A DNA stretch of 64,000 nucleotides from an uncultured Halobacteria archaeon (lineage in GTDB: Bacteria; Pseudomonadota; Gammaproteobacteria; UBA9214), in assembly GCA_963768575.1 (NCBI GenBank), contig CAVYIJ010000001.1, positions 273,214 to 337,213 of the forward strand, written 5' to 3'. This document shows, in pieces, positions 4,927 to 52,640 of this stretch. Under the pieces are notes generated by a model. The model did not search any database. It was not told the origin of the DNA and worked only from the letters and a program-made list of their open reading frames with translations. Both the position numbers and the translations under genes were made by a program. Each line of letters starts with the position of its first letter. The stretch's first letter is position 1.

Positions 4927-5011
<85 letters not shown>

Positions 5012-5168
5012 ATGGGTCTCCTGCTGTCTCTATCGAGGATGCCTGCTTGATGTTCTTGAATTATAACTACTTGGAAAGGGTTTGCGCACCCCAATAATCG
5101 GTAGAATTACTCCCATCCAGAACGGGCCATCAGCCCGGGCACATGAGGCCAGCGATGCTGGATTGATC

Positions 5169-5244
5169 TGGTGGGCCGTGAAGGAATCGAACCTTCAACC
5201 AATGGATTAAGAGTCCACTGCTCTGCCAATTGAGCTAACGGCCC
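5169..5244 (-). tRNA. tRNA-Lys (anticodon CTT)
   Basis: 76 nt; reverse complement is GGGCCGTTAGCTCAATTGGCAGAGCAGTGGACTCTTAATCCATTGGTTGAAGGTTCGATTCCTTCACGGCCCACCA; acceptor stem pairs; anticodon loop CTCTTAA. Confidence 0.75.
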
Positions 5245-5312
5245 GAAAGCGCGCTATTGGAGCATAGTCTGCAGGGTGGTTCAAGCAGCCCGCAGGCGGC
5301 CGGGCCGGGAAT

Positions 5313-5389
5313 TGGGGTGGACGATGGGACTCGAACCCACGACGACTGGAATCACAATCCAGGGCTCTACCAACTGAGCTACGCCCACC
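5313..5389 (-). tRNA. tRNA-His (anticodon GTG)
   Basis: Reverse complement is GGTGGGCGTAGCTCAGTTGGTAGAGCCCTGGATTGTGATTCCAG...CCATCGTCCACCA, including the His-specific extra 5' G; anticodon loop TTGTGAT. Confidence 0.9.
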
Positions 5390-5433
5390 ATAAAAAAGGC
5401 TTGCCTGCCGATCACCAATCAGCCCCTGCTGTT

Positions 5434-5510
5434 TGGCGCGCCCGGCAGGATTCGAACCTGCAACCGTCGGCTTAGAAGGCCGGTGCTCTATCCTGTTGAG
5501 CTACGGGCGC
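5434..5510 (-). tRNA. tRNA-Arg (anticodon TCT)
   Basis: Reverse complement is GCGCCCGTAGCTCAACAGGATAGAGCACCGGCCTTCTAAGCCGACGGTTGCAGGTTCGAATCCTGCCGGGCGCGCCA, closely resembling E. coli argU; anticodon loop CTTCTAA. Confidence 0.88.
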
Positions 5511-5528
5511 AGGTTACACCTCACCAAC

Positions 5529-5605
5529 TGGTCGGGGTAGAGAGATTCGAACTCCCGACATCCTGCTCCCAAAGCAGGCGCGCTACCAGGCTGCGCTATA
5601 CCCCG
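5529..5605 (-). tRNA. tRNA-Pro (anticodon TGG)
   Basis: Reverse complement is CGGGGTATAGCGCAGCCTGGTAGCGCGCCTGCTTTGGGAGCAGGATGTCGGGAGTTCGAATCTCTCTACCCCGACCA, proM-like; anticodon loop TTTGGGA. Confidence 0.9.
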
Positions 5606-42483: not shown

Positions 42484-42570
42484 ACTGCCGAGGTGGTGAA
42501 ACTGGTAGACGCACTGGATTCAAAATCCAGCGGGGGCAACTCCATGCGGGTTCGATTCCCGCCCTCGGCA
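42484..42570 (+). tRNA. tRNA-Leu (anticodon CAA)
   Basis: 87 nt GCCGAGGTGGTGAAACTGGTAGACGCACTGGATTCAAAATCCAG...GGTTCGATTCCCGCCCTCGGCACCA with long variable arm; anticodon loop TTCAAAA. Confidence 0.88.
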
Positions 42571-42648
42571 CCATTCAGACGCAATTGCGGCACCGTGTAA
42601 AACAATTAACGGGCAGCCGCGCAGCATCGTTTATTGTTTCTCCAGGGA

Positions 42649-47565: not shown

Positions 47566-48987
47566 TCAGGGCTGACGCTGCATACCATATTTGCGCAGCT
47601 TCTCTACCAGGGTAGTACGCCGCATGCCAAGACGTTTGGCGGCATGGGCCACGACACCGCCTGAATCAGCAAGAGCCTGCTTGATATAGCTCACCTCAAG
47701 GCAACTCAAATGCTGCTTCAGATTCATGCCCGCACGTGGCAAGCGGGGGTCCAGATCATGTGATGTTACCGGTGAACCGACAAGTGCATCGACTGCCTGC
47801 TCCGTAACATCATCAGTATTCTGGCGAAATTTTTCCGGCAAATCACCGGCATCAACAACGCCGTACGGATGCAGAATCGCCATGCGCTCGATCAGGTTCG
47901 CCAGTTCCCTGACATTTCCCGGCCAGTTGTACTGACAGAGGGCATAAATGGCCCCCGGCGACAGGCGGACCGATCCACGTTTCTCATGCTCGATGCGGCG
48001 TACCAGCTCGTTGACCAGCAGCGGTATGTCTTCAACCCGCGCGGATAGCGACGGCATTTCTATGGGAAACACATTCAACCGATAGAAAAGGTCTTCGCGG
48101 AACTCGCCCTCCTCGATCGCCGCTTCGAGATTTTTGTGCGTGGCCGCAAGAATTCGTACATCAGATTTAATACTCTGGTTGGACCCGACCCGCTCAAAGG
48201 TGCGCTCCTGCAAAATACGCAATATTTTCACCTGCATCTGCAGGCTCATATCGCCTATTTCATCAAGAAATAACGTACCGCCTTCCGCCATCTCAAAGCG
48301 ACCCTGGCGATCATTGATCGCGCCCGTAAACGCCCCCTTCTGATGGCCAAACAATTCTGACTCCAGCAGATCAGCGGGAATCGCTCCGCAATTGACCGGA
48401 ACAAATGGCTTGTCGCGGCGGGATGAATAGTAATGCAGGTTTCTTGCAATGACTTCCTTACCGGTACCCGACTCGCCAAGTATCAGGACATTTGCATCGC
48501 TGTCAGCTACTTGCTGTATGAGTTTACGCACATCCTGAATAGCACGACTGCTGCCAACAAGGCTGCGGAACAGTTCTACCGGGCGCTGATCGGATGGTGT
48601 ACTCCGGTGGGATTGCGTATAGATTTCGGCCTGGTGCAATGCGTTGGTGAGATGCGTGTAATTCGGCGGTAATTCCAGACGCCCAAGGATGCATGATCCC
48701 GGGTCAATCGTAACTGTCGGCTCCTTGCCTTTTTTACTCAGCAGGTAAATCGGCAGGTGTTCGTCGAAGTTATGTATTTCGTTCAGGAGCGTAGCAAGTG
48801 AATGATCGGACTTGCATGAACCAAGCATGACAGCCTGTAGTTGCTCACCGTCTTCGATTACCTGCTGCCAACGTGTCGTATCGTCCACCAGCACCGGGTT
48901 GGAGCCGATAAACTTCAGAACGGATTGCAGCTCTTTTCCTGCAGCTGGATCAGCTTCTAGTACAAGTACCCTGGACTCTGTTTGCAT
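47566..48987 (-). CDS. fleQ: Sigma-54-dependent flagellar master regulator FleQ
   Basis: High identity to Pseudomonas FleQ across the AAA+ domain ([32 protein letters not shown]) and the C-terminal HTH. Start set at [13 protein letters not shown]. Confidence 0.92.
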
Positions 48988-49439
48988 TCGGCTTCCTGGA
49001 CGATTTATTACCCTGGCCCCTGCGGAGCCGTAAGGCATTGAAACGTTCTTGTTAATCCCCTAGATTTGAGACGGATATTAACCAGTCCGTCAAGGTAATG
49101 TCAAAACCATCTGTGACCTGCGTTGCAAAAACTTCCGGCGTCCTCCCGCAGAATTTTACCTGTTGTAATCAAAACGATTTTCTGTTGATAAAAACCTGCA
49201 GAGCCGGGCCCCTATCAGCACGCCCGGCGAAGACAGGCGGTCGACTACAGCCGATCACCGGTCAGCCACACGCCAGGTATCCCCCGCGACACCCGCAAGT
49301 GAGAGGCGCGTGGCGGACAGACTGTCATAATTTTGCCACTTTGTGCGCGAGACCTCAAAACCGGGTTAAATCCGGTGATTGAACAGACGATATCTTAAAT
49401 GAGCCCGGCACAGACCGGAGGTAACAATGCTCAGGAATA

Positions 49440-49625
49440 TTGACCGACATTGCACAGGCAGAAAAGACAATAATGCTGATACCCAACGAACTAAAACCCG
49501 AATGTGATACCTGTCGTATCGCTGCCATACGCAGCCAGCTGGATGAGGATCAGTATATCGTCGATCCACAGCAGATAGCCAACAAGTTCATAGACCTCGA
49601 AGTTGCAATCTATGGGCACAATTAG
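49440..49625 (+). CDS. Possible FlgM-like anti-sigma-28 fragment (61 aa, TTG start)
   Basis: The C-terminal half, IAAIRSQLDEDQYIVDPQQIANKFIDLE, resembles the sigma-28-binding C-terminus of FlgM (..AIRNGELKMDTGKIADALI..). It lies near fleQ/fleN/fliA. It is short, with a non-ATG start and no clear RBS. Confidence 0.3.
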   Translation: MTDIAQAEKTIMLIPNELKPECDTCRIAAIRSQLDEDQYIVDPQQIANKFIDLEVAIYGHN

Positions 49626-49767
49626 CTCGAAGTGACCAATCCGGGTCATATCCTCTCAACGAATATTTCCGCCTGTCTGCCCGACTCGTCAATGGTACAG
49701 ACACTGCCCCTGATGCTAGAATAAGGCCGTTTATTCAACAGGCAGTAAACTGCCCGGAACCAGACAC

Positions 49768-49843
<76 letters not shown>

Positions 49844-49857
49844 TTTAACACTGTATA

Positions 49858-49934
49858 GCCCCGGTAGCTCAGCTGGATAGAGCAAGCGCCTCCTAAGCGC
49901 TAGGTCGGACGTTCGAATCGTCTCCGGGGCACCA
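49858..49934 (+). tRNA. tRNA-Arg (anticodon CCT)
   Basis: 77 nt GCCCCGGTAGCTCAGCTGGATAGAGCAAGCGCCTCCTAAGCGCTAGGTCGGACGTTCGAATCGTCTCCGGGGCACCA; anticodon loop CTCCTAA. Confidence 0.88.
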
Positions 49935-50424
49935 ACTAATTCCCCCGACCGTACAGACGGTTCGAACGTCCGACGTTTCTATCAGCCCCGTTCGACAAGC
50001 GGCGTAAGCCGCGCAGAACGTCGTCGCGAAGCGACGGCGGCCCCGAAGGGGTGAGGCCCAAAGGGCCGAATAATCGTCTCCGGGGCACCAACTAATTCCC
50101 CCGACCGTACAGACGGTTCGAACGTCCGATGCGAGGCGCATGGCGATGCGCCGAGTAGAATCAGTCCCGTTCGACAAGCGGCTTGTCGTTCCCGCGCGTC
50201 CCTGTGCTCCACGACATAAGTACATCCCTGTACAAAAGCCGCGCACGACTGCAGGGATGCAGGAGGTAGAGCAACGCAGGGAACAGTTGCCGAGAACGTC
50301 GTCGCGAAGCGACGGCGGCCCCGAAAGGGCTCAGGGCATCATGCCCTGAGTAGTATCGAGCCCGAATAATCGTCTCCGGGGCACCAACTAATTCCCCCGA
50401 CCGTACAGACGGTCCGAACGTTTC
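49916..50424 (+). repeat. Three direct copies of a ~60-bp unit (last ~20 nt of tRNA-Arg plus ~40 nt downstream) with partly conserved hairpin-rich spacers (att-site-like scars)
   Basis: Copies at 49916-49975, 50067-50129 and 50363-50421 share CGAAT(A)ATCGTCTCCGGGGCACCAACTAATTCCCCCGACCGTACAGACGGTTCGAACGT. Spacers share GAACGTCGTCGCGAAGCGACGGCGGCCCCGAA(A)GGG and TCAG(C/T)CCCGTTCGACAAGCGGC. Confidence 0.8.
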
Positions 50425-50426
50425 AT

Positions 50427-52640
50427 TCAAGTATTGCGCCGCGCGCCGATGACATTCTGCAACTGCCCGATCCGGGTCAGCACCCGGCTTAACTGGCCGA
50501 TATCGGTAATCTCCAGCGTCAGGTTCATACGCGCTATCCCGTCACTGGCATCCGTCCTGGTATTGGCGCCGACCAGGTTGACCTTTTCGTTCGCCAGCAG
50601 TGCGGTAATGTCACGCAACAAACCGGACCGATCGTATGCTTCTACGATGATATCGACCTGGTAGCCCGCTTCATCGGGCAGCCCCCAGTCGACTGCTATC
50701 AGGCGATCGCGATCGTCACCCTGGAGTCGCAGAATATTGCCGCAGTCCTGCCTGTGGATCGACACGCCACGCCCGCGCGTGATGTAACCGATAATGGGAT
50801 CACTGGGCACCGGCCGGCAACAACGTGCGGTCGTCGTCATCAGGTTACCGACGCCCTGGATATCAAATTCACCCGCTCCGGTGTCCCTTGTCTTGCGTCT
50901 GGTCCGCGACTGTTGCGGTTTCAGGGTGTCCTCACGAGGGATCAGCTCACTCAGGGAACGCGTCAGCTGGCCGGTCGTGATTTCGCTGCTGCCCAATGCT
51001 GCGAGAAACTCGTCAACCTGCCTGCCCCTGAAACGTTCCGCAATCTTTTCAACCGGAATATCCGAAATACCCACACGCTGCAGTTCCTTGTCCAGAATTG
51101 CACGTCCCGCAGCCAGGTTGTGCTCATAATCCTGACGCTTGAACCAGGCACGCACCCGTGAGCGTGCCCTCGAGGTATGCAGGTAGCCTAGGTGACTATT
51201 AAGCCAGTCTCTGCTCGGCCTGCCCTGTTTCGAGGTCAGAATTTCCACCTGTTCGCCATTGTTCAATTGCCAGGTCAAGGGCACTATCCTCCCGTTGACT
51301 TTCGCGCCACGGCAACGATGGCCAACCTCGGTATGCACCGCATAGGCAAAATCCAGTGGTGTCGCCCCCTGCGGCAGGTCTATGATCCGTCCCTGTGGCG
51401 TCAACACATAGACGCGATCCTGGAATGCTTCAGATTTGAACCGGTCAACGAAGTCGGCGGCTGTGCGCTCCTCTTCCTTCCATTCCAGCAACTGGCGCAA
51501 CCAGGTAATTTTCTCCTCGTACCCCCTGTCGGGGCCACCGCCTTCCTTGTAGCGCCAGTGTGCCGCAACCCCCAGCTCTGCATGACGATGCATTTCATAT
51601 GTTCTGATCTGCACTTCAAGATTCAGGCCGTCCGGACCGACCACAGCGGTATGGAGCGAGCGATAGAGGTTTTCCTTGGGGTTGGCGATATAGTCGTCGA
51701 ACTCTTTCGGGATATGGCGCCACAGGCCGTGCACGAGCCCGAGCGCTGCGTAGCAGTCTTTTTCCTCGTCGACCAGTATCCGCACGGCGCGCGTATCGAA
51801 AACCTGGTCGAAACTGAGATGTTTGCGCTGCATCTTCCGCCAGATACTGTAAATATGCTTGGTGCGGCCGGTAACAGTCGCATTAATACCGGCAGCTGCA
51901 AGTTCCTGCTCGATTATTTCGATAACGCGCAATATATAGGCTTCAAGTGATTCACGGTCCCCCTCCAGCTGTTTCGCGATCGACTGGTAGGCCTCCGGCT
52001 CCAGGTAGCGCATCGACAGGTCTTCCAGCTCCCACTTGATCTGCCAGATGCCAAGGCGATTGGCGAGCGGCGCGTAAATATCCAGCGTCTCCTGCGCAAT
52101 TCGTTTGCGGCGATCCGCGTCCAGGTGGGCCAGGGTTCGCATGTTATGCAGCCTGTCCGCCAGCTTGATCAATACCACGCGCACATCTTCCGCCATTGCA
52201 AGCAGCAGCTTGCGCAGGCTCTCGGCCTGGTCCGCCTGGTTGCCGTCCACGGTGTCTTGCTGGCGAAACTCTCCAATGCGCTCCATCTTGGTCACGCCAT
52301 CAACCATTCGCGCAATGGTCGGTCCGAAATCGTTACCCAGGTCGGTCAGTGTTATGGACGTATCCTCGACTACGTCATGCAGCATGGCAGCGACGAGTGT
52401 CTCGTAGTCAAGTTTAAGTTCATGAAGAATTTCAGCGACTGCCAGCGCATGCAGATAGTAGGGTTCGCCGGACTTGCGAAGTTGCGCATGATGCGCAGTG
52501 CAGGCAACCTCGATCGCACGGCTTAATGCTTCGCCATGCTCGGCGCTGTGCCCGGCCAGCAGTGCATCGACCCGCAATTGTGCGGTCGCATCGATGCATC
52601 CTGCTCCTGAGCCACCCTGATTGCCGGTCACTTCCACCAA
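50427..52640 (-). CDS. relA: RelA/SpoT-family (p)ppGpp synthetase/hydrolase
   Basis: 737 aa. HD motif intact (MLHDVVEDT). The synthetase region is very close to RelA (KHIYSIWRKMQRK...AELGVAAHWRYKEGG). TGS and ACT regions present. No rpoZ upstream. Confidence 0.9.
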   Translation of the reverse strand: MVEVTGNQGGSGAGCIDATAQLRVDALLAGHSAEHGEALSRAIEVACTAHHAQLRKSGEPYYLHALAVAEILHELKLDYETLVAAMLHDVVEDTSITLTDLGNDFGPTIARMVDGVTKMERIGEFRQQDTVDGNQADQAESLRKLLLAMAEDVRVVLIKLADRLHNMRTLAHLDADRRKRIAQETLDIYAPLANRLGIWQIKWELEDLSMRYLEPEAYQSIAKQLEGDRESLEAYILRVIEIIEQELAAAGINATVTGRTKHIYSIWRKMQRKHLSFDQVFDTRAVRILVDEEKDCYAALGLVHGLWRHIPKEFDDYIANPKENLYRSLHTAVVGPDGLNLEVQIRTYEMHRHAELGVAAHWRYKEGGGPDRGYEEKITWLRQLLEWKEEERTAADFVDRFKSEAFQDRVYVLTPQGRIIDLPQGATPLDFAYAVHTEVGHRCRGAKVNGRIVPLTWQLNNGEQVEILTSKQGRPSRDWLNSHLGYLHTSRARSRVRAWFKRQDYEHNLAAGRAILDKELQRVGISDIPVEKIAERFRGRQVDEFLAALGSSEITTGQLTRSLSELIPREDTLKPQQSRTRRKTRDTGAGEFDIQGVGNLMTTTARCCRPVPSDPIIGYITRGRGVSIHRQDCGNILRLQGDDRDRLIAVDWGLPDEAGYQVDIIVEAYDRSGLLRDITALLANEKVNLVGANTRTDASDGIARMNLTLEITDIGQLSRVLTRIGQLQNVIGARRNT

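Follow-up and report, generated by a model that had tools for sequence, protein, structure and literature searches.

A probable array of tRNA-linked repeats behind tRNA-Arg(CCT) in an uncultured Ectothiorhodospiraceae-like gammaproteobacterium

In the 64-kb stretch of contig CAVYIJ010000001.1 analysed here (hereafter the window), the 3' end of the gene for tRNA-Arg(CCT) occurs three times between that gene and the convergent gene relA. Such copies raise the question of whether the locus records the integration of mobile elements, a duplication without function, or a transcribed element in its own right. The locus is very probably a tandem array of tRNA-linked repeats (TLRs), located where the tRNA-Ala/tRNA-Arg(CCT) operon has its 3' end and composed of two full units and one truncated unit. 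The reading as integration scars falls, leaving no island or integration hotspot at tRNA-Arg(CCT), and a region left blank by standard pipelines gains an annotation.

In 1978, Egan and Landy reportedly described the 178-bp repeats of tyrT-tyrV in Escherichia coli as 'repeated 3.14 times', and Rudd is said to have defined the class as tRNA-linked repeats in 1999. RtT RNA (rttR; Rfam family RF00391) is the RNA of these tyrT repeats, the founding TLRs. TLRs are sequences in tRNA and rRNA operons, and E. coli K-12 has 22 of them, spread over ten loci in numbers of one to five; they are marked out by a 3' terminus of 18-19 bp with the same sequence as the 3' terminus of the tRNA or rRNA upstream, and they have no known function except for three linked to 5S rRNA, which bind Hfq and CsrA (Stenum et al., 2021; PMC8144298). 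TLRs, known since 1978, have been little studied; their core, the 19-nucleotide (nt) copy of the tRNA end and a closing helix that co-varies with the tRNA are shown here to recur in an uncultured Ectothiorhodospiraceae-like lineage, far from Enterobacterales.

Three copies of a tRNA end and the units between them

The repeated sequence is a 53-nt block (ATCGTCTCCGGGGCACCAACTAATTCCCCCGACCGTACAGACGGTTCGAACGT) consisting of the last 18 nt of tRNA-Arg(CCT) and 35 nt of its trailer. Its copies, which start 156 and 296 nt apart and leave intervals of 103 and 243 nt between them (Table 1), have no fourth counterpart anywhere in the window, and the number of matches expected by chance is 0 (100 shuffles). 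With the tRNA itself, the copies have exactly 19 nt (AATCGTCTCCGGGGCACCA) in common, from A58 of the T-loop to the encoded CCA. The spacers in turn have blocks of 37 nt (50015/50293) and 23 nt (49981/50160) in common. The triplication of the tRNA end in direct orientation, as pointed out in an earlier note on this DNA, was thus confirmed, with the block starting at 49917, 50073 and 50369 and showing 0, 0 and 1 mismatches, respectively.

These repeats delimit two full units, of 156 and 296 nt, and a truncated one. Each full unit runs from an A/U-rich leader through a segment complementary to the T-arm (the anti-T-arm) and the GC-rich hairpins P1-P3 to a GARTAATC junction and the 19-nt tRNA 3' end with its CCA.

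Table 1. Features of the array and of its surroundings in the window
Feature	Position	Strand	Remark
53-nt block, first copy	49917-49969	+	
53-nt block, second copy	50073-50125	+	0 mismatches
53-nt block, third copy	50369-50421	+	1 mismatch
19 nt shared with the tRNA itself	49916-49934, 50072-50090, 50368-50386	+	second and third copies are the 3' ends of units 1 and 2
TLR unit 1	49935-50090	+	156 nt; starts one base after the CCA of tRNA-Arg(CCT)
Unit 1, AU-rich/C-rich leader	49935-49953	+	
Unit 1, anti-T-arm segment	49954-49974	+	
Unit 1, closing-helix 5' strand	49955-49962	+	AGACGGTT; within the anti-T-arm
Unit 1, GTTCGAC box and hairpin	49989-50012	+	hairpin GCGGC-GTAA-GCCGC
Unit 1, P1	50019-50039	+	hairpin
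Unit 1, P2	50040-50052	+	hairpin
Unit 1, P3	50055-50067	+	hairpin
Unit 1, junction		+	GAATAATC; followed by the 19 nt identical to the tRNA
TLR unit 2	50091-50386	+	296 nt
Unit 2, leader and anti-T-arm	50091-50129	+	as in unit 1
Unit 2, closing-helix 5' strand	50111-50118	+	
Unit 2, extra hairpin	50135-50152	+	
Unit 2, GTTCGAC box	50168-50182	+	
Unit 2, expansion	50183-50292	+	about 110 nt; sits in the first-hairpin loop
Unit 2, P1	50297-50317	+	
Unit 2, P2	50318-50330	+	
Unit 2, P3	50330-50350	+	longer than in unit 1
Terminal truncated unit	50387-50421	+	leader and anti-T-arm, one T-to-C change
Inverted repeat of the T-arm	49904-49923 / 49955-49974		tRNA / unit 1; 20-nt arms, 95% complementary; second copy of the anti-T-arm at 50111-50129
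tRNA-Ala(CGC)	49768-49843	+	ARAGORN; Rfam tRNA 59 bits; first gene of the operon
tRNA-Arg(CCT)	49858-49934	+	ARAGORN; Rfam tRNA 65 bits
Promoter-like element of the tRNA operon	49693-49722	+	TGGTAC, 18-nt spacer, extended -10 TGcTAGAAT; putative
relA (GTP diphosphokinase)	50427-52640	-	convergent on the array; stop codon 50427-50429
flgM-like small open reading frame	49440-49625		weak TIGR03824 match; 5' of the tRNA operon
Sigma-54-dependent activator	47566-49038		FleQ-like in relatives; 5' of the tRNA operon

The expansion in unit 2 is placed exactly where the hairpin GCGGC-GTAA-GCCGC of unit 1 has its loop; it folds as a long imperfect stem (GTTCCCGCG...CGCAGGGAAC) and has the appearance of either an expansion segment or a small element that has been inserted. 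The extra hairpin of the same unit, GGCGCATG-NN-GATGCGCC followed by GAGTA, lies directly 3' of the anti-T-arm. In the units of a second type (type B) in the related loci L009, L012, L013 and L018, this module replaces P2/P3 near the 3' end, and to judge from its two positions it appears to be a movable sub-module of TLR units. Furthermore, the leader motif TCCCCCG (49941-49947, 50097-50103 and 50393-50399) and an internal GCCCCG (49985-49990) are complementary to the acceptor 3' strand CCGGGGC, giving the units of the window's lineage the option of an acceptor-like stem that is absent in relatives. The stem CCCCCG/CCGGGG was dropped as a family feature, being limited to the window's lineage.

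Kinship with the tRNA-linked repeats of Escherichia coli

The comparison drew on one GTDB genome (L001, a metagenome-assembled genome of an uncultured Ectothiorhodospiraceae bacterium), seven metagenome contigs found by a pattern scan and two loci found through RelA homologues. The scan, which used a 19-nt anti-T-arm pattern, returned 17 loci, 10 of which were chance matches in coding DNA and were discarded.

In the architecture of the locus, the likeness to E. coli is close. As in the window, the TLRs of E. coli lie directly 3' of a tRNA gene on the same strand, end in a matched stretch of 18-19 nt with CCA, form tandem arrays with a fractional last unit and use the T-stem 3' strand in their closing helix; in their long forms there is, in addition, a GUUCGAC box as well as a stretch with complementarity to the T-arm. 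Measured alike, the 3' identity to the upstream tRNA was 19 nt in both window units and 18-19 nt in E. coli tyrT, argV and lysT. The common core reads AACGUUGCC-loop-GGCAACG, GCCCGAAGGGY and GAG-hairpin-GARUAAUC, and the tyrT, lysT and argV TLRs of E. coli K-12 are laid out as AACGTTGC(C)-loop-(G)GCAACG, GCCCGAAGGGC, GAG-hairpin-GAGTMATC and the tRNA end, as are the units of the relatives. In contrast to the E. coli TLRs, those of the window belong to a distant host and follow tRNA-Arg(CCT), have a rebuilt P1 hairpin (CGUCGUCGC/GCGACGGCG), include a longer trailer of 35-40 nt in the repeat, carry the expansion and the extra hairpin in unit 2, and lack a tpr-like open reading frame, there being no ATG at the corresponding place.

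Sequence homology was found at the level of the lineage. The unit of L004 is identical to the E. coli tyrT-tyrV TLR at 48 of 54 positions (89%), ungapped, and in a blastn search of a 7.3-Gb plasmid collection its matches, all of them in Escherichia, Klebsiella or Salmonella, had identities of 83-87% over 54 nt and E values down to 3e-8. A lineage profile (nhmmer) built from window unit 1 and nine units of relatives, with no E. coli sequence, found all four TLRs of the E. coli tyrT locus (E = 6e-8 to 7e-6) and two in the argV operon (E about 1e-4), all on the strand of the tRNA. The same profile matched window unit 2 at 50094-50183 and 50289-50386 (E = 2.5e-7 and 2.4e-7) and unit 1, itself one of its ten members, with E = 7e-34. 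In the reverse direction, a profile of E. coli units alone found L004, L018, L009 and L001 (E = 3.5e-10, 8e-8, 5.5e-6 and 7e-4, respectively). At a permissive threshold, the RtT model RF00391 matched unit 1 (49939-50090) over its whole length (1-130 of 130), with the terminal CACCA and the GARUAAUC junction aligned. A second Rfam family, RF02902 (AaHKsRNA22, Aggregatibacter small RNA 22), also holds the TLR core in its consensus (GAACGuUGGC..GCCAaCGgCcCcaaAgGgGcGAg-hairpin-GAgua), and its model matched L018 at 236-331 with 40.9 bits, above its gathering score of 39.8, and L009/L010 with 37.9 bits.

Position and strand, the 19-nt 3' identity, a number of tandem units within the range of one to five, homology of the core (at the level of the lineage) and the shared structure were all found at this locus, and in every testable defining feature the array belongs with the TLR arrays of the long tyrT kind. 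The suggestion in the earlier note of a repeat family, small and non-autonomous, whose members copy the end of the tRNA was essentially right, the family having already been named TLR (RtT).

Several points weigh against this assignment. The profile of E. coli units gave no match in the window at E <= 10, and unit 1 had no blastn match in 28 Gb of E. coli genomes. The window scored 20.5 bits with RF00391 (gathering score 45; L018 reached 23.8 bits) and 19.6 bits with RF02902. The window units are therefore linked to E. coli by transitive homology: neither blastn nor the profile of E. coli units reached them directly, and the units of the relatives form the bridge, so that the assignment, made from sequence, rests on synteny, the match to the lineage profile, the shared architecture and the homology of the relatives' units to E. 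coli. The window units are not members of RF00391 or RF02902 as curated and are filed in the wider TLR family. One relative, at 74% RelA identity, keeps both tRNA genes beside relA with no unit, so the element is dispensable at this locus. The differences in copy number described below were read from metagenomes assembled from short reads, a procedure in which tandem repeats may be collapsed. No intrinsic terminator was predicted in or after the array, and co-transcription, cleavage by RNase E and stability of the RNA are proposed from what is known of E. coli.

The layout of the locus, in which a sequence with the tRNA 3' end alternates with intervening cores (X-core-X-core-X), is also what tandem integration would be expected to leave. 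tRNA 3' ends are classic attachment (att) sites, and the earlier note had accordingly offered nested or tandem att scars of tyrosine-integrase elements, or a preferred landing pad; a variant would be tiny non-autonomous elements mobilized in trans. Direct repeats with the tRNA 3' end are indeed common to the array and to the att sites of integrative elements in tRNA genes (attL/attR duplications, CIME-like remnants). However, as that note had also observed, no integrase is found nearby and relA follows; the neighbours (the sigma-54-dependent activator, the flgM-like open reading frame and relA) include no foreign cargo, no attP match was found, and the intervals of 103 and 243 nt are occupied by conserved structured RNA homologous to the E. 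coli TLRs. The repeat runs 35 nt past the tRNA into sequence that belongs to the unit. Furthermore, the E. coli core follows tRNA-Tyr, tRNA-Arg(ACG), tRNA-Lys and 5S rRNA, with a matched 3' end each time, so no single integrase att site explains it, and the closing-helix 5' strand co-varies with the tRNA. The junction between tRNA end and trailer had 0 matches in IMG/VR, and the segment 49900-50430 had no blastn match among 50,697 phage records. One IMG/VR contig, classed as viral, does close with the 3' end of tRNA-Lys and, behind it, three TLR units, as integration would allow. Taken together, att scars were considered very improbable here.

On that contig (L028, 12220-12712, UViG_2836850911_000005, minus strand), the three units stand at the contig end, and a copy of the same intrinsic terminator precedes each of them. 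The stretch is probably host DNA flanking a prophage near tRNA-Lys.

Folding and co-variation with the adjacent tRNA

The earlier note had also described the spacers as sharing blocks and rich in GC hairpins, which agrees with the 37- and 23-nt blocks and with the predicted folds: the minimum free energy was -68.1 kcal/mol for unit 1 and -125.4 kcal/mol for unit 2, with z = -3.35 and -4.2, respectively, against shuffled sequences. Comparison of the units shows a predicted RNA that closes on itself, in which AGACGGUU pairs with the tRNA-derived AAUCGUCU, recreating the T-stem and leaving a free tail of the acceptor strand and ACCA. In RNAalifold, ten distinct units of the window's lineage supported the closing helix AGACGGUUCG/CGA..AAUCGUCU and the hairpins, with compensatory changes.

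On its 3' side, the closing helix is formed by a copy of the T-stem 3' strand of the tRNA; on its 5' side, the strand changes with the tRNA, reading GGGGAAGGAU behind tRNA-Tyr, GGGAGGAU behind tRNA-Arg(ACG), GUGAAGGAU behind tRNA-Lys and AGACGGU behind tRNA-Arg(CCT) in the window. Covariation was scored in an alignment of 14 units, five from the window's lineage and nine from E. coli, from which the long-form insert had been cut to bring the closing strands into register; as a control, the partners were slid by 1-3 columns. Standard pairs were formed in 92.2% of the cells (26-47% when slid), 12 pairs had changed on both sides (2-3 when slid) and the covariation score was 0.282 (at most 0.115 when slid). 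The co-variation of the closing-helix 5' strand with the tRNA indicates selection at the RNA level, and the conservation of the TLR core and of the tRNA-end mimicry far outside Enterobacterales likewise argues for an RNA under selection.

The long forms extend the closing-helix 5' strand to a full anti-T-arm. The earlier note had seen this as a 14-nt inverted repeat of the T-arm; the repeat is real, though its arms measure 20 nt, and it is invariant in all ten distinct related units (10/10). The roles then proposed for it fit less well: the U-run of an intrinsic terminator was not found, and the repeat is better explained as the closing-helix 5' strand or as the local T-arm-like hairpin GACG-GUUCGAA-CGUC than as integrase arm sites.

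Long-form TLRs of E. coli tyrT (L019) and downstream of lysQ (L024, 3154-3310) hold a near-complete reverse complement of their own T-arm as well, the letters being GGAAGGATGAGAAGCTTCG for tRNA-Tyr, where the perfect complement is GGAAGGATTCGAACCTTCG, and GATTCGAACCTGC for tRNA-Lys. Judging from this complementarity, the anti-T-arm could base-pair, within the precursor, with the T-arm of the tRNA.

A local duplication in tandem that has no function, or tRNA-Arg copies produced by slippage and since decayed, with only incidental hairpins, would account for the variation in copy number and for the one relative without units. It would also fit the decayed 3' ends of units in L018 and the orphan degenerate unit in L020, both described below, and the TLRs of tRNA operons have no known function even in E. 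coli. However, the core is 83-89% identical between Enterobacterales and the distant lineage of the window and the helices are kept through compensatory changes, which together argue that this is not neutral sequence. As for decayed tRNA copies, neither ARAGORN nor the Rfam tRNA model recognized the units as tRNA-like. Neutral duplication was thus regarded as quite improbable.

Relatives, proposed expression and neighbouring genes

The order flgM-like open reading frame, tRNA-Ala(CGC), tRNA-Arg(CCT), units and convergent relA was found in L001, L004, L009, L010, L012, L013, L016, L018, L021 and L022. The assembled related arrays have one or two full units, except that L018, whose contig starts inside the array, has at least three, and every related array that could be read through to relA ends with a truncated unit made of leader and anti-T-arm. 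Contigs whose relA flank is identical at 150 of 150 positions carry one type-A unit, one type-B unit, or A plus B. These differences in unit number fit gain and loss by recombination between the repeats.

Two of the three full units of L018 (25-469) have decayed copies of the tRNA end (AATCCTCTCTTGGGCACCA and AATCATCTCTTTGGCACCA), and one of its units is without the GTTCGAC hairpin; judging from these sequences, TLR units can degenerate. In L020, whose RelA is 85% identical, tRNA-Ala/tRNA-Arg are gone from beside relA, and an orphan degenerate unit lies elsewhere on the contig (1464-1607 of the reverse complement, with the 3' end CATCGTCTACGGGGCGCCA). The orphan adjoins a gene of the MtrB/PioB family, and there is no tRNA gene in the 4.8 kb of sequence covered.

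This orphan, lying away from any tRNA, is what a dispersed element of the repetitive extragenic palindrome (REP) or miniature inverted-repeat transposable element (MITE) kind, placed beside tRNA-Arg by chance, would predict. A REP-like element spread over the genome, which the earlier note had named as an outcome that would undo its reading, was not seen in the window, where no other copy occurs; the orphan of L020 is the observation on its side. Against it, about 190 kb of related loci gave no further copy outside the tRNA-Arg site, none of the seven remaining tRNA genes in the window has units, and the 3' end matches the adjacent tRNA exactly. On the sequence covered, namely the window and these related loci, a dispersed element was given a very low probability.

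Assembly is a further source of apparent repeats, since the window comes from an assembly of an uncultured organism and tandem repeats are error-prone in short-read assemblies; a single trailer could have been mis-assembled into three copies. The units differ in length, however (156 and 296 nt), usual reads are longer than their exact repeats (53 and 37 nt), and the architecture recurs in ten or more contigs that stem from different samples and projects. An artefact of this kind is scarcely credible.

For a TLR array at the end of a tRNA operon, knowledge of E. coli suggests the following course of expression. The units would be read through from the tRNA promoter and co-transcribed with tRNA-Ala and tRNA-Arg. 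In E. coli, tRNA 3' ends are matured by RNase E together with exonucleases, and the same enzymes may cut the precursor in the A/U-rich stretch after every CCA; this leader reads ACUAAUU in the window and AAUACAU, AAUCAUUA and AUUAUUA in relatives. Cleavage would release stable RNAs, rich in GC and about 156 and 296 nt long, in which the acceptor strand and ACCA form a free tail. Through unequal recombination or slippage, the direct repeats of at least 53 nt may allow units to be added to the array or lost from it. Moreover, the array lies between the convergent relA and a tRNA operon that is presumably transcribed at a high level, and it may serve as a transcription stop. The tyrT terminator of E. 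coli is Rho-dependent and lies within the repeats.

Known RNAs offer partial parallels. RrA, RrB and RrF are the TLRs behind 5S rRNA in rrnA, rrnB and rrnD of E. coli; they are read-through transcripts with a 3' end just beyond the copied 18 nt, in RrB by 3 nt, and recognition by RNase E as for the 5S end has been suggested (PMC8144298). They bind Hfq and CsrA through GGA motifs and were set apart by the authors from the TLRs of tRNA operons (PMC8144298). In contrast, the loops of window unit 1 are GUAA, GAA, GAA and AAA and contain no GGA, and the idea of a CsrA sponge was dropped on this ground. The RNA 3'ETS-leuZ is, like the RNA proposed here, released from a tRNA operon transcript by tRNA processing (a concept cited in PMC8144298), but has no sequence relation to the window, and there is no evidence here for a sponge role.

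A wider hypothesis may also be raised, which we consider rather unlikely. TLRs might be an ancient class of structured RNA across Gammaproteobacteria, with a core about as conserved as a tRNA and with the closing helix and the free NCCA tail retailored so as to resemble the T-stem and acceptor end of each tRNA that precedes them, implying a conserved role in trans or in processing in cis. If so, they could act as decoys or competitors for factors that read uncharged tRNA 3' ends (3' exonucleases, the CCA-adding enzyme and possibly RelA, the product of the gene next to the array here) or, alternatively, the 20-nt anti-T-arm segment could be an antisense partner of the tRNA T-arm. At a practical level, the units were left blank by pipelines because those of the window stay under the gathering scores of the two Rfam models that matched them, and the new units add sequence diversity for a broader covariance model.

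Upstream of tRNA-Ala, a motif TGGTAY-18 nt-TGnTAGAAT is kept at 45-50 nt 5' of the gene in the window and in L001, L004, L009, L010, L012, L016, L021 and L022, while the bases around it diverge between the related loci; in L023, the promoter-like site reads TGTTAGAAT. A simple consensus promoter scan did not report the window's copy (49693-49722), which, from its conservation, is likely the promoter of the tRNA/TLR operon. No promoter was predicted inside the array. Further 5', the gene order of sigma-54-dependent activator, flgM-like open reading frame and tRNA operon is conserved in relatives.

The last repeat ends 5 nt before the relA stop codon, and the array fills the 492 nt from tRNA-Arg to that codon. 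The array adjoins the convergent relA in every relative that carries it. In L023, the synteny of the tRNA genes and relA persists without TLRs, and the adjacency of array and relA is thus probably a coincidence. An effect of E. coli RtT RNA on the stringent response was once claimed and was later reattributed to the neighbouring open reading frame (PMC8144298).

The other tRNA genes of the window, at 4927-5605 and 42487-42573, have no TLR. They include a five-tRNA cluster in which a spacer of 157 nt (5012-5168, minus strand) separates tRNA-Lys(CTT) from tRNA-Leu(TAG). This spacer has neither a TLR core nor a copy of the tRNA-Lys 3' end, so the long tRNA spacers of this genome are not all TLRs.

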